Below are positions 2,878 through 13,526 of a stretch of 14,172 nucleotides of DNA, piece after piece (the stretch's first letter is position 1; every line of letters begins with the position of its first letter). A program made the position numbers and the translations under genes. Below the pieces are notes generated by a model. It had not been told where the DNA came from. It ran no database searches and saw only the letters and a list, made by a program, of their open reading frames with translations. Origin of the DNA: an archaeon (lineage in GTDB: Archaea > Iainarchaeota > Iainarchaeia > Iainarchaeales > Iainarchaeaceae); NCBI GenBank assembly GCA_038046625.1, contig JBBSVV010000009.1, forward strand, positions 1 to 14,172. Reading direction: 5' to 3'.

Positions 2878-3498
2878 ATGAACCTTAACCTGGTGCAGTT
2901 CTGGGAGCCCGAAATTCTTGGGCATTACGCCCCGGAATTCAAAGACGAGGCAATAATCGTTTGCTCGGATTTCACGGAAGCCGAACTGAAGGAATTCTCG
3001 CAGAAAAAAAGGAAATGCAGCACAAAGTTTTTTTCCTGCAAGCTCCTCGCGCGCAAGGATAACAATGAAATGCAGCGCTTCAGGAGGCTCGCAGATTTTG
3101 TTGCGGTGCAAGGAAGCTCGCCTGAAATGTGCTTCTGGGCTGGAACCCAAAAGGCGGATTTGCTTGTGCAGCCGTTCTCTTCGCAGAAGAATTTTCTTGA
3201 TTCGCAGACAATAACGGTTCTGAAGCAGAACAATGTTTTCGCCGCGTTTTTGTTCAGTGATTTCCTTGCGGCGCGCTCCTTTGAGCAGTCGCAGCTCCTG
3301 AAGAACGCGATGCTTTCACTTAAATTGCTTGACAAGGGCGGCGCGAAAACGCTTTTCTTTTCAGGTGCGCGCAACGAGCAGGAACTCCGCGCCGCAAAAG
3401 ACCTTTCCTCGTTCGCGGTTTTCCTCGGGATGAAAAAGGATTCCGCTTTGAAGGCTGCGCGCAAAAGCACTGAAGAATTTCTGGAGAGGGTTAAATGA
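2878..3498 (+). CDS. rnp3: RNase P protein component 3 (Rpp30), divergent
   Basis: About 200 aa in the conserved position after rpl15e. Carries Rpp30-like C-terminal FSGARNEQELRAAKDLSSFAVFLGM plus DFVAVQG and KADLL segments. Confidence 0.78.
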   Translation: MNLNLVQFWEPEILGHYAPEFKDEAIIVCSDFTEAELKEFSQKKRKCSTKFFSCKLLARKDNNEMQRFRRLADFVAVQGSSPEMCFWAGTQKADLLVQPFSSQKNFLDSQTITVLKQNNVFAAFLFSDFLAARSFEQSQLLKNAMLSLKLLDKGGAKTLFFSGARNEQELRAAKDLSSFAVFLGMKKDSALKAARKSTEEFLERVK

Positions 3499-4037
3499 AA
3501 ATCCCGCCCATGGAAGAGTGCGAGGCTCTGATGGCGGAGTTTGAGGTGCCGGAACACATCAGGAAGCACACGGAAGAGGTGCGCAAAGTCTCGAATTTCC
3601 TCGCAAAAAAAATTTCCTCGAACGGAAAGAAAATAGATTTGGGTTTGGTTGACCGCGCCTCCTTGATGCACGATTTCCTCAAGATGCATTGCATCAAAAA
3701 TAACTGCAGGCATGCTTTGGAAGCCGGCAAAGTAATGGCCGGGCGCGGTTATGCCGAGTTCGGCGAGGTTCTCAAATTGCATGGCCTTGAGGAAGTGAAC
3801 AATTTTGATTCGAAAACATGCCTTGAGGCGAAGATTGTCTGGTATGCGGACAAGCGCGTGAACCATGGCGGCATTGTTTCCCTGAAGGCGCGTTATGATT
3901 ATCTGAAGCAACGCTATGGTTCAATGGGCGAACAAAAACTGAGGGAAATACTTTCAACGGAGAAGAGCGCTTTCGGCGTCGAGAAGGAAATTCTTGGCCT
4001 CGCCAAAGTGAAAAGCGATTTCGGGGGTTTGAAATGA
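3495..4037 (+). CDS. HD-domain metal-dependent phosphohydrolase
   Basis: HIRKHT...ASLMHDFLK...RHA...LH...IVWYADKRV motif series. ATGA overlaps with the genes on both sides. Confidence 0.9.
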   Translation: MKIPPMEECEALMAEFEVPEHIRKHTEEVRKVSNFLAKKISSNGKKIDLGLVDRASLMHDFLKMHCIKNNCRHALEAGKVMAGRGYAEFGEVLKLHGLEEVNNFDSKTCLEAKIVWYADKRVNHGGIVSLKARYDYLKQRYGSMGEQKLREILSTEKSAFGVEKEILGLAKVKSDFGGLK

Positions 4038-4513
4038 AGGCAACGAAAAAAGAAATGAATCCCATTCCCCCGACCTTGAGGGGGAAGAAGCGTTACGTGA
4101 AGTTCAGGCTTGTTTGCATTGGTGCGAGCATAGCGCGCCATGGCCCTGCGCAGCAGGGGCAGTCGCACGCCGCAAGCCCGCGGCGGGAGGGCATGCGAAC
4201 TGAGGTTCGCCAGGCCAGTGCGAAGCACTGTCCCTCGCTCCCAACCGGCGAAAGGGTTGTGAGGGAACAGGATGCGAAGTTTTCGTTGTACAGTTCTTTT
4301 GCGCGGCTGTTCGGCGAACAAGGAATTGCGGAGCAGAGGCTCTGGCTCATAAAGTGGTTCCCTGAAAGGAACGAGGGGATTGTGCGCTGCGCGCTTGAAA
4401 AGGAGGAGCAAGTGAAGGCGGGCCTTTTGTTCCTGCGCGAGGTTCATGGAGAACCCGTGGTTCCGCTGATTGAAGGCGTTTCGGGCTCTTTGAAGAAGCT
4501 GAAGCTCCGTTGA
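4034..4513 (+). CDS. rnp2: RNase P protein component 2 (Pop5/Rpp14) with a ~42-aa internal insertion
   Basis: Pop5 motifs PPTLRGKKRYVKF, LFGEQG, GIVRC, GVSGSLKKL. Residues ~29-70 are extra relative to the usual family layout. Confidence 0.92.
   Translation: MKATKKEMNPIPPTLRGKKRYVKFRLVCIGASIARHGPAQQGQSHAASPRREGMRTEVRQASAKHCPSLPTGERVVREQDAKFSLYSSFARLFGEQGIAEQRLWLIKWFPERNEGIVRCALEKEEQVKAGLLFLREVHGEPVVPLIEGVSGSLKKLKLR
4119..4244. repeat. 126-nt multi-hairpin palindromic insertion element, in frame within rnp2
   Basis: Ends pair (TTGG/CCAA, GCGAG/CTCGC) and enclose four hairpins: 4144-4158, 4168-4185, 4195-4210, 4216-4230. Positions 4162-4192 match 11476-11506 at 28/31 nt. Confidence 0.72.
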
Positions 4514-7277: not shown

Positions 7278-8023
7278 TGGCAAAAAAAACTGAAGAAAAA
7301 ATAGTTTACGTGGATTCAAAGGGAAAAAGGCTTGACGGCAGAAAAGTCGAGGAATTGAGGCCGATAAAGATTCGCGCGGGCGTAATCCCGAGCGCGGACG
7401 GTTCGGCATATCTTGAGTGGGGGCAGAACAAGGTGTTTGCCGCGGTTCACGGGCCAAGGCCCTGTTTGCCGAAGCACACGGCATCCCCGTACAAGGCAGT
7501 GATTAAGTTCGACTACAAGATGGCCACGTTCAGCGTTCCGGACAGGAAAAACCCGAGGCCGAGCAGGCGCGAGATTGAAATCTCAAAGGTCTGTGGCGAG
7601 GCGCTTGAAAAGGCGATTTTCGTTGAAAGGTTCCCGAACACGGAAATAGTTGTCATTGTGGCAGTGATTGATTCAGATGCGGGCTCCAGGATAGCTTCCC
7701 TGACCGCGGCATCGGTTGCAATGGCTGACGCGGGAATCCCGATGCGCGACATGGTTACGGGAACGGGCATAGGAAGGGCCGGCGGAAAGATGCTAGTGGA
7801 TTTGAACAAGGCCGAGGAGGATGCCCCCGACGCGGTGGATATTCCGCTCGCGATTTTGCCTAATTCAAAGGAAATAGTCCTGCTTCAGATGGACGGAATA
7901 ATGACCAAGAAGGAATGGGAAGACGTGTATCCGCTTGGTGAAAAGGCCATAATGCAGGTTTATGAGCTGCAGAAAAACGCCCTGAAGGCAAAGTATGCTA
8001 AAAACGGAGTTGAGGAGAAATGA
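7277..8023 (+). CDS. rrp41: Exosome catalytic subunit Rrp41
   Basis: RNase PH fold: RLDGRK..ELRP, ADGSAYLEWG, VHGPR, SRREIEISKV, DAGSR, DAGIPMRD, LLQMDG. Confidence 0.96.
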   Translation: MAKKTEEKIVYVDSKGKRLDGRKVEELRPIKIRAGVIPSADGSAYLEWGQNKVFAAVHGPRPCLPKHTASPYKAVIKFDYKMATFSVPDRKNPRPSRREIEISKVCGEALEKAIFVERFPNTEIVVIVAVIDSDAGSRIASLTAASVAMADAGIPMRDMVTGTGIGRAGGKMLVDLNKAEEDAPDAVDIPLAILPNSKEIVLLQMDGIMTKKEWEDVYPLGEKAIMQVYELQKNALKAKYAKNGVEEK

Positions 8024-8818: not shown

Positions 8819-9265
8819 ATGGCACTTAAGAAAGTGGGCACAACAGGCCGTTACGGCTCGAGATACGGAGTAGGCATAAGGAAAAGGCTGCTCAAAATCG
8901 AGCCAACGCAGGTGCAGAGGCACTTGTGCCCCAATTGCGGTTCCCGAAAGGTGAGGCGCCAGAGCAAGGGAATTTTCCTTTGCTCCAAGTGCAGGCACGA
9001 GTTCATCGGGGGCGCGTATCTCCCGCAGACCCTCACAGGCGGCATCATTGGGAAAATGGTTTTGCAGAAGAACTTCGGGCTCCTGAATGAGCTTGAGGAG
9101 AAGAGGCAGAAGGCGGAAACGGAATCCGAATCCAATAGGGAAGAAGGGGAAACCGAGGCCGAACCGAAAAAAGTGATGAGTGCAAAGAAAAGGCGCGGAA
9201 AAGAAAAGGAAGCCGAAAAAGAGGGGCTCGAAGAGGCTGCGGAAGAAGTTGATGAAGGGGGTTGA
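8819..9265 (+). CDS. rpl37ae: 50S ribosomal protein L37ae (eL43) with a long charged C-terminal extension
   Basis: GRYGSRYG, CPNC...CSKC zinc ribbon, FIGGAYLP, followed by about 60-70 aa of Glu/Lys-rich tail. Confidence 0.95.
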   Translation: MALKKVGTTGRYGSRYGVGIRKRLLKIEPTQVQRHLCPNCGSRKVRRQSKGIFLCSKCRHEFIGGAYLPQTLTGGIIGKMVLQKNFGLLNELEEKRQKAETESESNREEGETEAEPKKVMSAKKRRGKEKEAEKEGLEEAAEEVDEGG

Positions 9266-9271
9266 GTGAAG

Positions 9272-9403
9272 ATGTACAAATGCTTGAGATGCGGAAAGGA
9301 AGTCCAGAGCCTCGTTGCGGGTTCCATAAGGTGCCCGGGCTGCGGGTACAAGATTTTCTCGAAAACAAGGGAACCTATCACAAAAACTATTCGGGCGAGA
9401 TGA
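9272..9403 (+). CDS. rpoP: DNA-directed RNA polymerase subunit P (Rpo12), 43 aa
   Basis: Not in the ORF track. Manual translation gives MYKCLRCGKEVQSLVAGSIRCPGCGYKIFSKTREPITKTIRAR*, the classic YxCxxC...IRCPxCGYKI pattern, in the conserved position after rpl37ae. Confidence 0.95.
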   Translation: MYKCLRCGKEVQSLVAGSIRCPGCGYKIFSKTREPITKTIRAR

Positions 9404-9663
9404 TGCCTTCGGCAGAAATAACCGCCGATTTTCCTGATTCGAAAAGTGCGGGGAACGCGGCAAGGTCATTAAAGGTTGAGCTTAAGCATGGCTTTGAAAG
9501 GCGCTCGAGGGCCTCAATAAAAACCAATAAAACTGTTGTTTACCTCACGATTAGTGCTTTGGATGAAAGCGCTTTAAAGGCTTCAAGGCATTCTTTTGAA
9601 AGGCTCTTAGGGCTTTGCAGCGGAATTTCTTTTATGGGGGGAACAAAAAATGGCGGACGTTAA
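9400..9663 (+). CDS. pcc1: KEOPS complex subunit Pcc1
   Basis: About 87 aa with Pcc1-like SL..E...RS...LTISALDESALKAS.HSF.RL. Sits between rpoP and pfdB with an ATGA overlap on the rpoP stop; ATG 9403 is the alternative start. The track's 9262 start is an over-extension. Confidence 0.85.
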   Translation: MMPSAEITADFPDSKSAGNAARSLKVELKHGFERRSRASIKTNKTVVYLTISALDESALKASRHSFERLLGLCSGISFMGGTKNGGR

Positions 9664-10006
9664 CAAGTCCATTCAGGAGTTCGAGAGGGGCAGGATACAG
9701 CTCTCGGCAATAGAGAGCCAGAGGCAGTCAATGGAGATACAGTCCAAGGCCATTGAAGAAGCCATTACCGAGCTTAAGGCCTCAAAGGAACAGAAGGTTT
9801 ACAAGGCCGCGGGAAACATCCTCATTCTTTCCGACGCAAAAAGGGTTGAGAAGGAACTAAAGGAACAAAAGGAAACAATGGACCTGCGCGTCAAAACCCT
9901 GAAGAAGCAGGAAGAGGCAATGCTTGACAAATTGAACAAGCTCAAGGCGGACATAGAAGGATTCCAGAAGCCCGCCGAATCAAAATCAAGTGAAAAGGAA
10001 GAGTAA
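9650..10006 (+). CDS. pfdB: Prefoldin subunit beta
   Basis: Coiled-coil arms around KVYKAAGNILI, then ELKEQKETMDLRVKTLKKQE; conserved synteny. Confidence 0.94.
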   Translation: MADVNKSIQEFERGRIQLSAIESQRQSMEIQSKAIEEAITELKASKEQKVYKAAGNILILSDAKRVEKELKEQKETMDLRVKTLKKQEEAMLDKLNKLKADIEGFQKPAESKSSEKEE

Positions 10007-10011
10007 TCCGG

Positions 10012-11019
10012 ATGCCGCTGAAGAGCCTTTCTCCGCTTTACGGAAAAAAGGTTCTTCTCCTGACGCATTCGGGCGCGGACGTTGATTCATTTGGAAGCGC
10101 CGCCGCAATCCAATTCTCATTGAAAGGCAAGGCCAATGCAGTCATCGGCGTTCCTGACCATTTGAACCTTCCCTCAAAGGCATTTGCGGAGCGCATCCGC
10201 GCTGATTATGAAATAAATCCCCCGTTCAGGAATTTCGGTGCGATAGTGTGCCTGGATTACAACAAGGCGTCTATGCTCGGCTCATTGAAAAGCGCTTTCG
10301 ATTCTTTTGAAGGGGAAAAATTCCTTATAGACCATCATGTCCCTGAAAAGGAGCGCCTTGCTCCGGAAAAAAATTCGCTCCAGAGCAAAGATGCCATTTC
10401 CACGACCGAACTGGTTTACTCTTTGCTTAAAAAATCGCGCATGAAAATCCCGAAAAAGGCGCTCGAGTGCATTGCCGCGGGAATAGTGACTGACTCCGCG
10501 GGCTTTTTGGTTGCCGACCACAAAACCTTTTCAATAATGGCGGAAGTGATGCGCGCGGCCGGAATCTCTTATGGCTCGCTGGTTTCGCTTTTCTCCGTTG
10601 AAAAGGATTTATCCCAGAAAATTGCGGCGCTTAAAGCCGCGCGGAGGTGCAGGATTTACAAGTCCCGGGAATCAATTTTTGTTTCCTCGGATGTCGGGGC
10701 CTTTGAGGCGGATTCCGCAACCGCATTGATAAGGGTCGGGGCGGATGTTGCTTTCTGCGGTTATGCCGAGAAGGGCAAAATACGCGTAAGCGGGCGCGTG
10801 AACAATTCATGGCTGAGGGAAAAAAAGTTTGACCTCGCGCGCGACGTCTTCAACCGCCTCAAAGAGTTCTTTGAGGGCGAGGGCGGGGGCCATCCCGGCG
10901 CGGCGGGCTTCAATGGTTCCGGCGGCAATATAGCGCCGGTGCTGGAGAAGTGCATTGCGCTTGCGCACGAATTCAATTCAAGGAATGAGAAGAATGCCGA
11001 ACTGAAAGAGTACCCATAA
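10012..11019 (+). CDS. DHH/DHHA1-family phosphoesterase (NrnA-like)
   Basis: THSGADVDSFGS, CLD, IDHH, GIVTDS, SGR and GGGHPGAAG motifs; commonly follows pfdB in archaea. Confidence 0.92.
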   Translation: MPLKSLSPLYGKKVLLLTHSGADVDSFGSAAAIQFSLKGKANAVIGVPDHLNLPSKAFAERIRADYEINPPFRNFGAIVCLDYNKASMLGSLKSAFDSFEGEKFLIDHHVPEKERLAPEKNSLQSKDAISTTELVYSLLKKSRMKIPKKALECIAAGIVTDSAGFLVADHKTFSIMAEVMRAAGISYGSLVSLFSVEKDLSQKIAALKAARRCRIYKSRESIFVSSDVGAFEADSATALIRVGADVAFCGYAEKGKIRVSGRVNNSWLREKKFDLARDVFNRLKEFFEGEGGGHPGAAGFNGSGGNIAPVLEKCIALAHEFNSRNEKNAELKEYP

Positions 11020-11049: not shown

Positions 11050-11340
11050 TTATTTTTTCCTTGTTTTTCTTTTCGCTTTTTTTCCGCTTTTTTTCTTTTC
11101 GCTTTTTTTTGCCGCGGTTTTTTTGTGTTTCCTTTTTTTTGGGCGCTTCGGTTTTGCGGCCGCGGCTTTCTGCACTTCTTCCTCGGCCGCGTTGAGGTTT
11201 TTCATTTCAGTGCGCGAGAGCAGCATGGCGTACTTCCTGTATTTTGTTTTTGCCCAGTGCTCGGGCTGCTTCTTTCGCAGCTTGAGCTCTTCCTTCAAAA
11301 GCGCGAGCCTGAGTTCTTCGGATGGGCCGCTCAAATCCAT
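11050..11340 (-). CDS. Small hypothetical protein with Lys/Arg-rich, histone H1-like C-terminal tail (96 aa)
   Basis: ATG at 11340 lies about 30 nt downstream of TTTAAATA (11377-11370). Tail reads KAAAAKPKRPKKRKHKKTAAKKSEKKKSGKKAKRKTRKK. Confidence 0.72.
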   Translation of the reverse strand: MDLSGPSEELRLALLKEELKLRKKQPEHWAKTKYRKYAMLLSRTEMKNLNAAEEEVQKAAAAKPKRPKKRKHKKTAAKKSEKKKSGKKAKRKTRKK

Positions 11341-11377: not shown

Positions 11378-11444
11378 CCTGTATGGGGCAAACCGCCCGA
11401 ATTAGGTGCTTTGAGAGGTTAAATGCCTTTATTCAGGGCTTTCT

Positions 11445-11574
11445 ATTCCAAATTTTTTAACCTGAGAAAACAATTGTCCCACGCCGCAGGCCCGCGGCGG
11501 CAGGGCGGCTATCTTCGTTTGGACTCGATAGGCCTTCATTCCAAATTTTTTAATCTGAGAAAACAATTATCGCA
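11445..11574. repeat. 37-bp imperfect direct repeat (11445-11481 and 11538-11574) duplicating the 3' end of the Zn-ribbon gene
   Basis: attccaaattttttaaCctgagaaaacaattGtcCca versus attccaaattttttaaTctgagaaaacaattAtcGca: 34/37 identical, period 93 nt. Confidence 0.9.
11476..11506. repeat. Second partial copy of the palindromic element found in rnp2
   Basis: gtcCcacgccgcaGgcccgcggcggCagggc versus 4162-4192 gtcGcacgccgcaAgcccgcggcggGagggc. The CGCCGC/GCGGCG stem is intact in both. Confidence 0.8.
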
Positions 11575-11856
11575 GATGAATTTTTCCTTGAAATCCATGC
11601 CATGTTCGCTGAGCTCATTGCAGAGTATGCATTCCCTCGCGTTTTCCATGATGCGCCTCTGCTGGCTCCACTCGTACAATAAATCCCAGTTCAGCCAGGG
11701 CGGCAGGACAAGCTCTTTCAAAACGGTTTTGTCGTTCTGCTGTATGCGCCTCACATGCGAAGGGACGATTGATTTGTGGAGGTCATTGAGGTACTTGATG
11801 CGGTCCTTTTGCCCGCGCTTAATCATCTCGAAAAGCCTTTGCTCCCACAGGTCCAT
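11536..11856 (-). CDS. Hypothetical protein with C-terminal CxxC...CxxC zinc ribbon (106 aa)
   Basis: ECILCNE...FKEKFICDNCF; TATA-like TTAAATA at 11887-11881 upstream of the ATG. Confidence 0.8.
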   Translation of the reverse strand: MDLWEQRLFEMIKRGQKDRIKYLNDLHKSIVPSHVRRIQQNDKTVLKELVLPPWLNWDLLYEWSQQRRIMENARECILCNELSEHGMDFKEKFICDNCFLRLKNLE

Positions 11857-11899: not shown

Positions 11900-12271
11900 T
11901 TACAGGTAAACTATTTTGTTTCCCTCGCGGATTTTCTGCCGCTCCGCATACGCAATGAGGTAATGCGCCGTGCTCTTCGGAATTCCGGTTATCCTTTCTA
12001 TTTCACGGAAAGTCCTGTGGTCCCTGTGAAGCTCTATTATTTCAGCCATTTTCTGCACGGGAATGCCGATAGGCCTGCCGCGCGCGCTTTCAAGGAGCAT
12101 ATTCACGTTCTTTTCCTTTACCATTGCCCTTGCCGAGAAGCTCATGCGTTCGAACGCGCTCTTTGGCATGCGCAATTCATCAACGCCGCCTTTAATGTCG
12201 CGCTTCAGCTCGCTTATTTTTGGAGCCCTTGCATAATGCTTTGATTCTGCCACGGAAAACACCTTACTCAT
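11900..12271 (-). CDS. Helix-turn-helix protein, N-terminal part reminiscent of archaeal DUF1699 (123 aa)
   Basis: GRP hook followed by HTH RTFREIERITGIPKSTAHYL. ATG 12271 chosen because the track's 12478 start overlaps ribBA. The DUF1699 resemblance (ELRMPKSAFERMS) is from recall only. Confidence 0.8.
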   Translation of the reverse strand: MSKVFSVAESKHYARAPKISELKRDIKGGVDELRMPKSAFERMSFSARAMVKEKNVNMLLESARGRPIGIPVQKMAEIIELHRDHRTFREIERITGIPKSTAHYLIAYAERQKIREGNKIVYL

Positions 12272-12283
12272 TTTTGTTAATCG

Positions 12284-12297
12284 TAACGCTTTTAAGT
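12284..12297 (+). promoter_or_regulatory. BRE/TATA promoter for ribBA
   Basis: TAACGCTTTTAAGT about 33-40 nt before ATG 12330. The same AACGCTTTTA core precedes the EamA gene. Confidence 0.5.
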
Positions 12298-12329
12298 AAT
12301 TGTTGCGGGGTTCATTAATAGTGGGTCTC

Positions 12330-13526
12330 ATGGGTTTTAAATTCGATTCAGTTGAAAGCGCCGCAAGTGCCCTTGCCAAGGGCGGAATGGTTGTCATGGT
12401 TGATGATGAGCGCCGCGAGAACGAGGGTGATTTGGTTATTGCGGCGGAAAAGGTTACCGCGGAGCACCTGAATTTCATGGCGCGTGAAGCGCGCGGCCTG
12501 ATCTGCGTCCCTATTACGCAGGAAAAGGCGCTTCAATTGGATTTGCCGCGCATGACCCAGAACAAGGACAAGTTTGAAACGCCTTTCACTGTTTCGGTTG
12601 ATGCCGCGGGAACCTCTACAGGAATAAGCATCAAGGACCGCCTTTTGACAATCAAAACAATTCTCAGCGATTCTTCAAAACCGGAGTCTTTGCACAGGCC
12701 GGGGCACGTTTTTCCCCTGGTTTCAAAGGAAGGGTGCGTTCTGCAGAGGGCCGGGCATACAGAGGGCGCAATTGATTTGGTGAAGCTCGCGAAATTAAAG
12801 CCCGTTGCGGTGATTTGCGAGATAATGAATGAGGACGGCTCCATGGCGCGCCTTCCCGAACTCCGGAAGTTTGCCAAGAAGCACTCATTGAAGCTTGTGA
12901 CTTTGAAGGATTTGATTCAGTACAGGCTGAGGAAAGGCCTGCAGATTAAGCGCATTGCGGAGGCCAACCTTCCTACCGATTTCGGGGATTTCAAGGCTGT
13001 CGGCTTCCTTGATCTTGCGGGAAACCATGAATACCTCGCGCTTGTGAAAGGAAAAGTTGCCGGCAAAAAAAACGTTCTTGTGAGGGTTCATAGTGCCTGC
13101 CTTACCGGGGATGTGTTCCACAGCAAGAGATGTGATTGCAATGAGCAGCTGCACATTGCGCTGGAAAGGATAAATGCCGAGGGCCGGGGCGTTGTTCTTT
13201 ACATTCCGCATCACGAAGGCCGGGGAATAGGCCTTTTGAACAAGCTGCGCGCATATGAGTTGCAGGAGAAGGGCAAGGACACTGTTGAGGCAAACCTTGC
13301 TTTGGGGCTTCCGAGCGACAGGCGCGAATTCGGTACGGGCGCGCAGATTCTTTGCGACTTGGGCTTGACAAGCATAAGGGTTCTCACTAACAACCCGAAA
13401 AAATTGGCTGCCTTGGAAGGCTTCGGATTGAAAATTACCGCGCAAGTTCCGATTAAGGTGCACGCGAACGAGTACAACAGGAAATACCTGAGAACCAAGA
13501 AACAGAGAATGGGCCACTTATTGTAG
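12330..13526 (+). CDS. ribBA: Bifunctional 3,4-dihydroxy-2-butanone-4-phosphate synthase / GTP cyclohydrolase II
   Basis: RibB: DDERRENEGD, FTVSVDA, RPGHVFPL, RAGHTEG, ICEIMNEDG. RibA: LVRVHSACLTGDVFHSKRCDC, EGRGIGLLNKLRAY, DTVEAN, LTNNPKK, YLRTKKQRMGH. Confidence 0.97.
   Translation: MGFKFDSVESAASALAKGGMVVMVDDERRENEGDLVIAAEKVTAEHLNFMAREARGLICVPITQEKALQLDLPRMTQNKDKFETPFTVSVDAAGTSTGISIKDRLLTIKTILSDSSKPESLHRPGHVFPLVSKEGCVLQRAGHTEGAIDLVKLAKLKPVAVICEIMNEDGSMARLPELRKFAKKHSLKLVTLKDLIQYRLRKGLQIKRIAEANLPTDFGDFKAVGFLDLAGNHEYLALVKGKVAGKKNVLVRVHSACLTGDVFHSKRCDCNEQLHIALERINAEGRGVVLYIPHHEGRGIGLLNKLRAYELQEKGKDTVEANLALGLPSDRREFGTGAQILCDLGLTSIRVLTNNPKKLAALEGFGLKITAQVPIKVHANEYNRKYLRTKKQRMGHLL

Follow-up and report, generated by a model that had tools for sequence, protein, structure and literature searches.

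A short GC-rich hairpin repeat in the Pop5 gene and next to a zinc-ribbon gene of a DPANN archaeon, with a third copy in Candidatus Iainarchaeum andersonii

In one DPANN archaeon, the gene for the RNase P protein Pop5 contains a GC-rich hairpin, a near-copy of which lies 7.3 kb away, beside another gene. What kind of sequence this hairpin is, and whether it belongs to a dispersed repeat family, is the question that this locus raises. The DNA analysed here, a stretch of 14,172 nucleotides (hereafter the window) with a GC content of 49%, represents an archaeal exosome/RNase P "superoperon" of a Diapherotrites/Iainarchaeia-like DPANN organism, and the named relatives of its Pop5 protein come from Candidatus Diapherotrites and uncultured archaea. 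The genes of the window include those for L15e, Rpp30, an HD-like ORF, Pop5, proteasome alpha, SBDS, Rrp4, Rrp41, Rrp42, L37ae, Pcc1, prefoldin beta, and a DHH phosphoesterase. Successive genes of the operon share 4-base stop/start overlaps at 3495-3498, 4034-4037, 8020-8023, and 9262-9265, which suggests tight translational coupling along the operon. The ORF between Rpp30 and Pop5 (3495-4037, plus strand, 180 aa) has such an overlap with each of the two; it matches no Pfam family above threshold, whereas NCBIfam gives a DVU_1551-family NTP transferase (C-terminal part, 1.2e-22, below cutoff) and TIGR00295, and its product looks like an HD-like protein. Within the L37ae ORF (8819-9265, plus strand, 148 aa), the L37ae domain covers only residues 4-79, which leaves the protein with a long extension at its C-terminus. 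As listed, the RibBA ORF begins with TTG at 12300 and shares 179 bases (12300-12478) with the HTH gene on the minus strand at 11900-12478; because the DHBP synthase domain of RibBA begins at residue 19, its true start is probably located further downstream.

The two copies of the hairpin, at 4162-4192 and 11476-11506, lie on the same strand and are identical at 28 of 31 positions (90% in the repeat search of the window, family D14). As the original prediction had put it, the differences spare the 6-bp CGCCGC/GCGGCG stem, which is the same in both copies: they are a G/C mismatch 5′ of the stem (4165/11479), an A/G mismatch in the loop (4175/11489), and a G/C mismatch 3′ of the stem (4187/11501). 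The identity itself, also claimed in that prediction, was re-derived and is beyond chance, in that the 21-base core CACGCCGCARGCCCGCGGCGG has two matches with up to three mismatches in the window, while dinucleotide-preserving shuffles hold 0.01 on average and none of 200 reaches two. Widened to the 37 positions of the covariance model described below, copy 1 occupies 4160-4196 (plus strand, 52.3 bits) and copy 2 occupies 11474-11510 (plus strand, 55.9 bits). In copy 1, the 6-bp stem pairs 4168-4173 with 4180-4185 around a 6-base loop, and a partial outer stem is present; the repeat thus belongs, by size, among the GC-rich imperfect palindromes of 20-40 bases. The similarity is sharp-edged, with no alignment of the flanks beyond about 37 bases, which agrees with the earlier remark that the flanks differ. 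The 37-mers fold with -15.8 kcal/mol (z -1.0, copy 1) and -18.8 kcal/mol (z -0.5, copy 2), and neither is more stable than composition-matched shuffles.

Copy 1 lies in the ORF of Pop5, or RNase P protein component 2 (4034-4513, plus strand, 159 aa; Pfam PF01900 at 1.3e-10, NCBIfam PRK03717, and matches to solved structures), where it occupies codons 43-53 in the sense orientation and reads HAASPRREG. It is part of an in-frame insertion of approximately 132 bases, or 44 codons, with a GC content of 71% (4124-4255, plus strand), whose boundaries are precise to a few codons, another placement being about 4139-4264. The insertion is missing from all of the 42 other significant Pop5 matches, which are 106-136 aa long. 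Alignment of 12 of the 43 Pop5 proteins places the 44 extra residues after the conserved strand YVKFRLVC, and the closest relative (P0003), 78% identical over the aligned part, has none of them. When the protein is compared with the solved Pop5 of Pyrococcus (2czv_C), residues 6-30 align with 3-27 and residues 80-158 with 33-111; because the structure is skipped from residue 27 to residue 33, the insertion takes the place of a five-residue loop. Two other Pop5 proteins also carry insertions in the same loop, of 19 aa (P0007) and 6 aa (P0024), and the loop is simply permissive. Homology of the 19-aa insert with that of the window was considered and rejected, the local score of 20 being reached by 3,634 of 5,000 and 2,777 of 5,000 shuffles, depending on which of the two sequences was shuffled. 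No similar insert was found in other proteins, either among matches of near length (43 significant among 73 candidates, all Pop5) or in longer proteins at E≤10 (7 candidates; proteins of at least 87 aa were covered overall), and the phage and plasmid collections likewise gave no match to it.

With regard to composition, the insertion looks foreign. Its GC content of 71% compares with 52% in the rest of the gene, and its GC1/2/3 values of 0.73/0.66/0.75 are flat, compared with 0.52/0.38/0.59 in the other genes; furthermore, it is free of stops in the frame of the gene and open in four of the six frames. On account of the high GC, the flat profile over codon positions, and the four open frames, it looks like DNA of non-coding origin that is now read through in frame. 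The region 4139-4262 folds as one long imperfect hairpin (-61.4 kcal/mol, z -2.0), with 6 of 200 shuffles folding equally well, and the edges of the insertion show neither direct repeats or a target duplication nor a terminal inverted repeat. Translation as a loop is the most likely fate of the insertion, and nothing suggests that it is removed from the product. The original prediction had described the insert as a nucleic-acid element rather than a protein loop; the first part of that description is in line with the nucleotide-level homology and the foreign composition, but the choice it offers is a false one, in that the insert is in frame, stop-free, and most likely translated.

Copy 2, in contrast to copy 1, is untranslated. 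It is located in the 3′ untranslated region of a minus-strand gene, just past the stop codon and antisense to it; the gene (11536-11856, minus strand) encodes a conserved zinc-ribbon protein of 106 aa and unassigned function, with 17 representatives at E≤0.001. In this family C76, C79, C95, and C98 are invariant, and Pfam gives only a weak Gin-like match. The authentic 3′ end of the gene forms one member of a direct repeat (D8b, 11538-11574, plus strand), whose minus strand reads CDNCFLRLKNLE followed by a stop; the resulting C-terminus, FICDNCFLRLKNLE, is usual for the family and agrees with 13 aligned members. The other member (D8a, 11445-11481, plus strand), whose minus strand reads WDNCFLRLKNLE followed by a stop, is a downstream pseudo-copy of that 3′ end. 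The two 37-base repeats are 92% identical, with longest exact runs of 16 and 14 bases, and they are 93 bases (31 codons) apart in the same phase, with TGA and TAG stops between them. Enclosed by the repeats is a segment of 56 bases (11482-11537, plus strand) with a GC content of 70% against 35% in its flanks, which holds most of copy 2 at its start and a second small hairpin at its end. A weak inverted repeat, 18 bases at 11435-11452 and 11518-11535 with 78% complementarity, connects the sequence immediately ahead of the first 37-base repeat with the end of the GC-rich segment, and could be a trace of template switching or due to chance. Copy 2 therefore sits in a small insertion plus duplication just past the stop of an intact zinc-ribbon gene, and the duplication, at 37 bases, is far longer than the usual target-site duplication of a transposon. 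The earlier contrast between a coding copy and an intergenic copy at a duplication junction is borne out by these positions, copy 1 being in the Pop5 ORF and copy 2 between the direct repeats. The copy-2 segment had no phage matches, and its plasmid matches were found only in high-GC bacteria at E≥0.01.

Only three GC islands of the window reach at least 0.70 and peak above that value; the 56-base segment is one of them, and it and the Pop5 insert are the only non-trivial ones. The GC island at 10853-10945, the second strongest of the window (0.80 in 50 bases), was considered as a further insertion and rejected, for it is the ordinary DHHA1 motif GGGH..AAG. Between 11053 and 11141 there are T-rich repeats with periods of 11 and 15 bases (families D1 and D2), and, read on the minus strand, these code for a Lys-rich tail at the C-terminus of a small protein of 96 aa (11050-11340) without any family match. 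No transposase, RAYT, or integrase gene was detected among the window ORFs scanned with Pfam (25 + 5).

A scan of the exact 21-base core against 185,579 species genomes gave 17 loci with one match each, of which a single one is not explained by chance. Sixteen of them are found in bacteria of 65-73% GC, and their 16 flank bases match those of copy 2 at 2-8 positions, which is the chance level. The seventeenth (locus L016) belongs to Candidatus Iainarchaeum andersonii SCGC AAA011-E11, a genome that differs at genus level; the locus has a GC content of 48%, and the flanks match at 11 of 16 positions. By blastn, window positions 11475-11509 align with L016 positions 10026-9992 at 32 of 35 bases (E 2.6e-7), and this hairpin is the sole DNA similarity between the window and the 20-kb locus, in which the element region is also the top GC island. 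Two flank changes in the third copy keep the outer pairs (U-G to U-A and C-G to U-G). The possibility named beforehand as fatal to the family, namely that there are only two copies derived from a local rearrangement or mis-assembly, does not hold in view of this third copy.

The third copy lies in the Arg/Gly/Glu-rich C-terminal tail of Nop5 (PF01798), on the strand opposite to the gene, where the protein reads RPSFRRGPAAWNR (including FRRGPAAWN). P0063, the Nop5 of a near relative, has an overall identity of 81% and hardly differs in the Nop domain; at this point the tail of P0063 is collinear, has the same length, and reads RPPYRREPTAQGNR, so the copy in I. andersonii is ordinary coding tail inherited vertically and not an insertion. 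Elsewhere in the tail, two indels, of 26 and 12 aa, distinguish the I. andersonii protein (8913-10325, plus strand) from P0063, the longer being a repeat of the FREKRFEE..PRREYG unit, and because such indels separate close relatives, the Nop5 tail can be regarded as a fast-changing low-complexity region. As deduced from the protein, the P0063 patch would have at least 6 substitutions and a 3-base indel in 35 bases, so that at most 29 of 35 bases would agree with the I. andersonii patch, to which window copy 2 is identical at 32 of 35. The window organism is probably further from I. andersonii than the organism of P0063 is, considering that no protein found exceeds 78% identity with the window Pop5, although this reasoning runs across different proteins. 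As far as these sequences go, the excess argues for non-vertical spread or homogenisation, and this conservation above expectation, the one puzzling result, has to be explained by mobility, by conversion between copies, or by selection. For the hairpin, identity between the genomes is approximately 91%, against at most 78% for their best-matching Pop5 proteins. What is shared is a nucleotide sequence and not a peptide, because the contexts of strand and frame differ among the three copies (sense in Pop5, untranslated, and antisense in Nop5).

Whether these copies constitute a family in the usual sense is another matter. What is directly observed is the repeat with its third copy, as well as the insertions with their composition; the copies known are three, all that they have in common is 31-37 bases, and a real multi-copy family is not established by them. 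Beyond the shared bases, the remaining sequence of the Pop5 insertion (about 100 bases) and of the 56-base segment (about 25 bases) is unrelated. The window organism has two copies within 14 kb of its genome. The tally of coding and intergenic copies proposed in the original prediction gives two in coding DNA and one untranslated, the Pop5 insert being in frame with its length of about 132 bases. Its proposed covariance model, built from the three copies and run on the window and L016 (34,193 bases), gave 52-56 bits for the copies and 8.6 bits for the next independent match, and thus no further copy in this DNA. No covariation was found among the three copies, nor could there be such evidence, because their stem never varies. 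Rfam 15 gave no matches at E≤1 over the whole window and only noise (E≥1.3) in focused scans, and ARAGORN found no tRNA or tmRNA in the window. A CRISPR array is likewise absent, the window copies being 7.3 kb apart and the 17 database loci having a single match each; Rfam CRISPR-DR43 scores 15.2 bits against the D8 repeat, with a threshold of 35. Among the matches listed in a literature search on Iainarchaeum/Diapherotrites repeats, no title concerned such repeats. Of the dispersed family originally predicted, what stands is that the repeat is not purely local; its extent is limited to three copies sharing 31-37 bases, and the search of its core across genomes produced one non-chance match, all others being chance matches in high-GC bacteria.

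Several known systems offer comparisons. Bacterial REPs lie outside genes, in large numbers, and share a conserved 5′ GTAG. In the present case, two of the three copies are coding, the 5′ flank is GTCS, the window has no RAYT gene, and the host is an archaeon. MITEs also differ, since the Pop5 insert has neither terminal inverted repeats nor a target duplication and the 37-base duplication at copy 2 is too long for one. Among archaea, palindromic repeats with coding potential were reportedly described in Methanocaldococcus jannaschii by Suyama et al. in 2005. The likeness to REP/BIME repeats, which in bacteria are mobilised by RAYT transposases, lies in the unit, a GC-rich imperfect palindrome of about 35 bases, and in the placement of copy 2, since the 3′ untranslated region immediately after a stop codon is described as the usual REP position (PMC3184786). 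Rickettsia palindromic elements (RPEs) are described as in-frame insertions in conserved housekeeping genes, which are translated as an extra surface segment and tolerated, and also as residents of intergenic DNA and even of the RNase P RNA gene (PMC10969869, PMC2229807). The Pop5 insert resembles them as GC-structured palindromic DNA that lies in frame and stop-free in a conserved gene whose 42 relatives are all without it. On the other hand, an RPE copy measures 105-150 bases and resembles the others over its full length, with tens of copies per genome, whereas here 31-37 bases are shared by three copies, one of which is not an insertion. Yeast mitochondrial GC clusters, described as short, dispersed, and strain-variable GC-rich hairpin modules in an AT-richer genome (PMC4478555), are similar in kind, but they belong to organelle genomes and occur in many copies and defined classes, with no comparable number here. 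Lastly, the bulge-helix-bulge intron of cbf5 is likewise an intervening sequence in an archaeal RNA-processing protein gene; the Pop5 insert differs in being in frame and open, and its boundaries show no canonical bulge-helix-bulge, in which two 3-base bulges enclose a helix of 4 bp and further helices flank them.

The explanation that we tentatively prefer, while regarding it as somewhat short of probable, is that the hairpin is a low-copy passenger repeat at the DNA level, of the kind represented by REPs, RPEs, or mitochondrial GC clusters, which is translated as a Pop5 loop. The module would be a GC-rich hairpin-forming DNA of about 31-37 bases, with the 6-bp CGCCGC/GCGGCG stem, a 6-base loop, and about four outer pairs, and it would be a low-copy dispersed repeat in the genomes of Iainarchaeia/Diapherotrites (DPANN). 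In the window, it would be carried inside two insertions of about 70% GC in a genome of about 49% GC, one in the Pop5 loop after the first conserved strand and one at the stop of the zinc-ribbon gene. Such a module may be passenger or selfish DNA without a function for the cell. New copies of it would be made at the DNA level, whether through an enzyme that mobilises it in trans or through recombination or template switching at the hairpin. In coding DNA it could persist only when it is in frame, stop-free, and placed in a tolerant loop or tail; it stays open there more easily because either strand of the CGC/GCG palindrome encodes Arg-Arg...Ala-Ala or Ala-Ala...Arg-Arg. In Pop5 the whole insertion would be translated as a loop of 44 residues, which is probably disordered. 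A stronger version, in which the hairpin is an actively spreading or homogenised element across genera of Iainarchaeia, or a functional motif, that enters genes of RNA-protein machines (Pop5 and Nop5) in frame, seems rather doubtful to us.

Of the other explanations, that of one-off repair patches deserves the most attention, although we consider it unlikely. Both insertions would be mosaics of filler DNA from microhomology-mediated template switching or break repair, and the shared 31-35 bases would come from one single-copy donor, such as the organism's own Nop5 tail, so that there would be no family at all. The partial sharing of each insertion fits this, as do the position of copy 2 at a duplication junction with its 37-base direct repeat, the native Nop5 coding sequence of I. 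andersonii as a plausible type of donor, and the absence of transposon hallmarks. The inverted copy of adjacent sequence beside copy 2 and the six junction bases GTCCCA, which resemble the ATCGCA that ends the second repeat, would also be in keeping with template switching, but complementarity of 78% over 18 bases and microhomology of 4 out of 6 are both within chance. The repair explanation further demands that two independent events copied the same stretch with nearly the same edges, and the closer match of copy 2 to I. andersonii than of the nearer relative, with the latter's figure deduced from protein, is hard to obtain by vertical descent of a fast-evolving tail. It is much less probable that the match results from chance or faulty assembly. 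Palindromes of CGC/GCG do arise easily in GC-rich DNA, as the 16 chance matches out of 17 and the plasmid matches in high-GC bacteria illustrate; nevertheless, the shuffles never gave two matches in the window, and the I. andersonii match lies in a locus of only 48% GC and reaches into the flanks. Moreover, the exact runs that the repeats share are too short to mislead an assembler (28 of 31 identical bases for the hairpin, runs of 16 and 14 bases for D8), and Pop5 remains in frame.

Selection might also have kept the hairpin as a cis-acting binding site or RNA signal of genes for RNA-protein machines, Pop5 serving in RNase P and Nop5 in box C/D particles. Two of the three copies do lie in genes for RNA-processing particles, no copy departs from the common core while the flank changes in I. 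andersonii preserve the outer pairs, and between genera the hairpin is better conserved than its surroundings. However, its orientation is inconsistent, namely sense in Pop5 but antisense in Nop5 and in the 3′ region of the zinc-ribbon gene; at the protein level it is missing from 42 of 42 other Pop5 sequences, and it has diverged in the closest Nop5. Since, in addition, no Rfam match or covariation supports this role and no G-A/A-G kink-turn signature was seen by eye, it appears improbable. An even lower probability is assigned to a mature Pop5 lacking the insert, whether by splicing of a bulge-helix-bulge pre-mRNA intron or by translational bypass. The insert is structured and GC-rich, archaeal pre-mRNA introns are described in cbf5 (PMC2738675), and a broad specificity is described for the splicing endonucleases of DPANN archaea (PMC12397907). 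A scan of 4,225 site pairs for the canonical motif at boundaries that restore the length of the gene nevertheless found nothing convincing: the sole in-frame candidate near 132 bases lies at 4128/4263 (135 bases) and combines a central helix of 4 bp with only 0 and 2 pairs on its flanks, and 34 candidates of such quality occur among the 4,225 position pairs. Removal is also unneeded, because the insert is in frame and stop-free.

For annotation, the lesson is that the long Pop5 of this organism represents a normal Pop5 with a tolerated loop insertion. A new mechanism is not indicated, be the hairpin the member of a family or repair filler, and if it is only the latter, the finding amounts to a small footnote on the origin of insertions in archaeal genes. 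If the hairpin were a spreading element or a functional motif, DPANN archaea would have their first described REP/RPE-like system, or else a regulatory hairpin in common. If, finally, the family is real, very small DPANN genomes would carry hairpin passenger DNA that lodges in frame in essential genes such as Pop5, in parallel with the Rickettsia palindromic elements of reduced bacterial genomes, and the repeat would mark recent exchange or conversion of DNA among Iainarchaeia.
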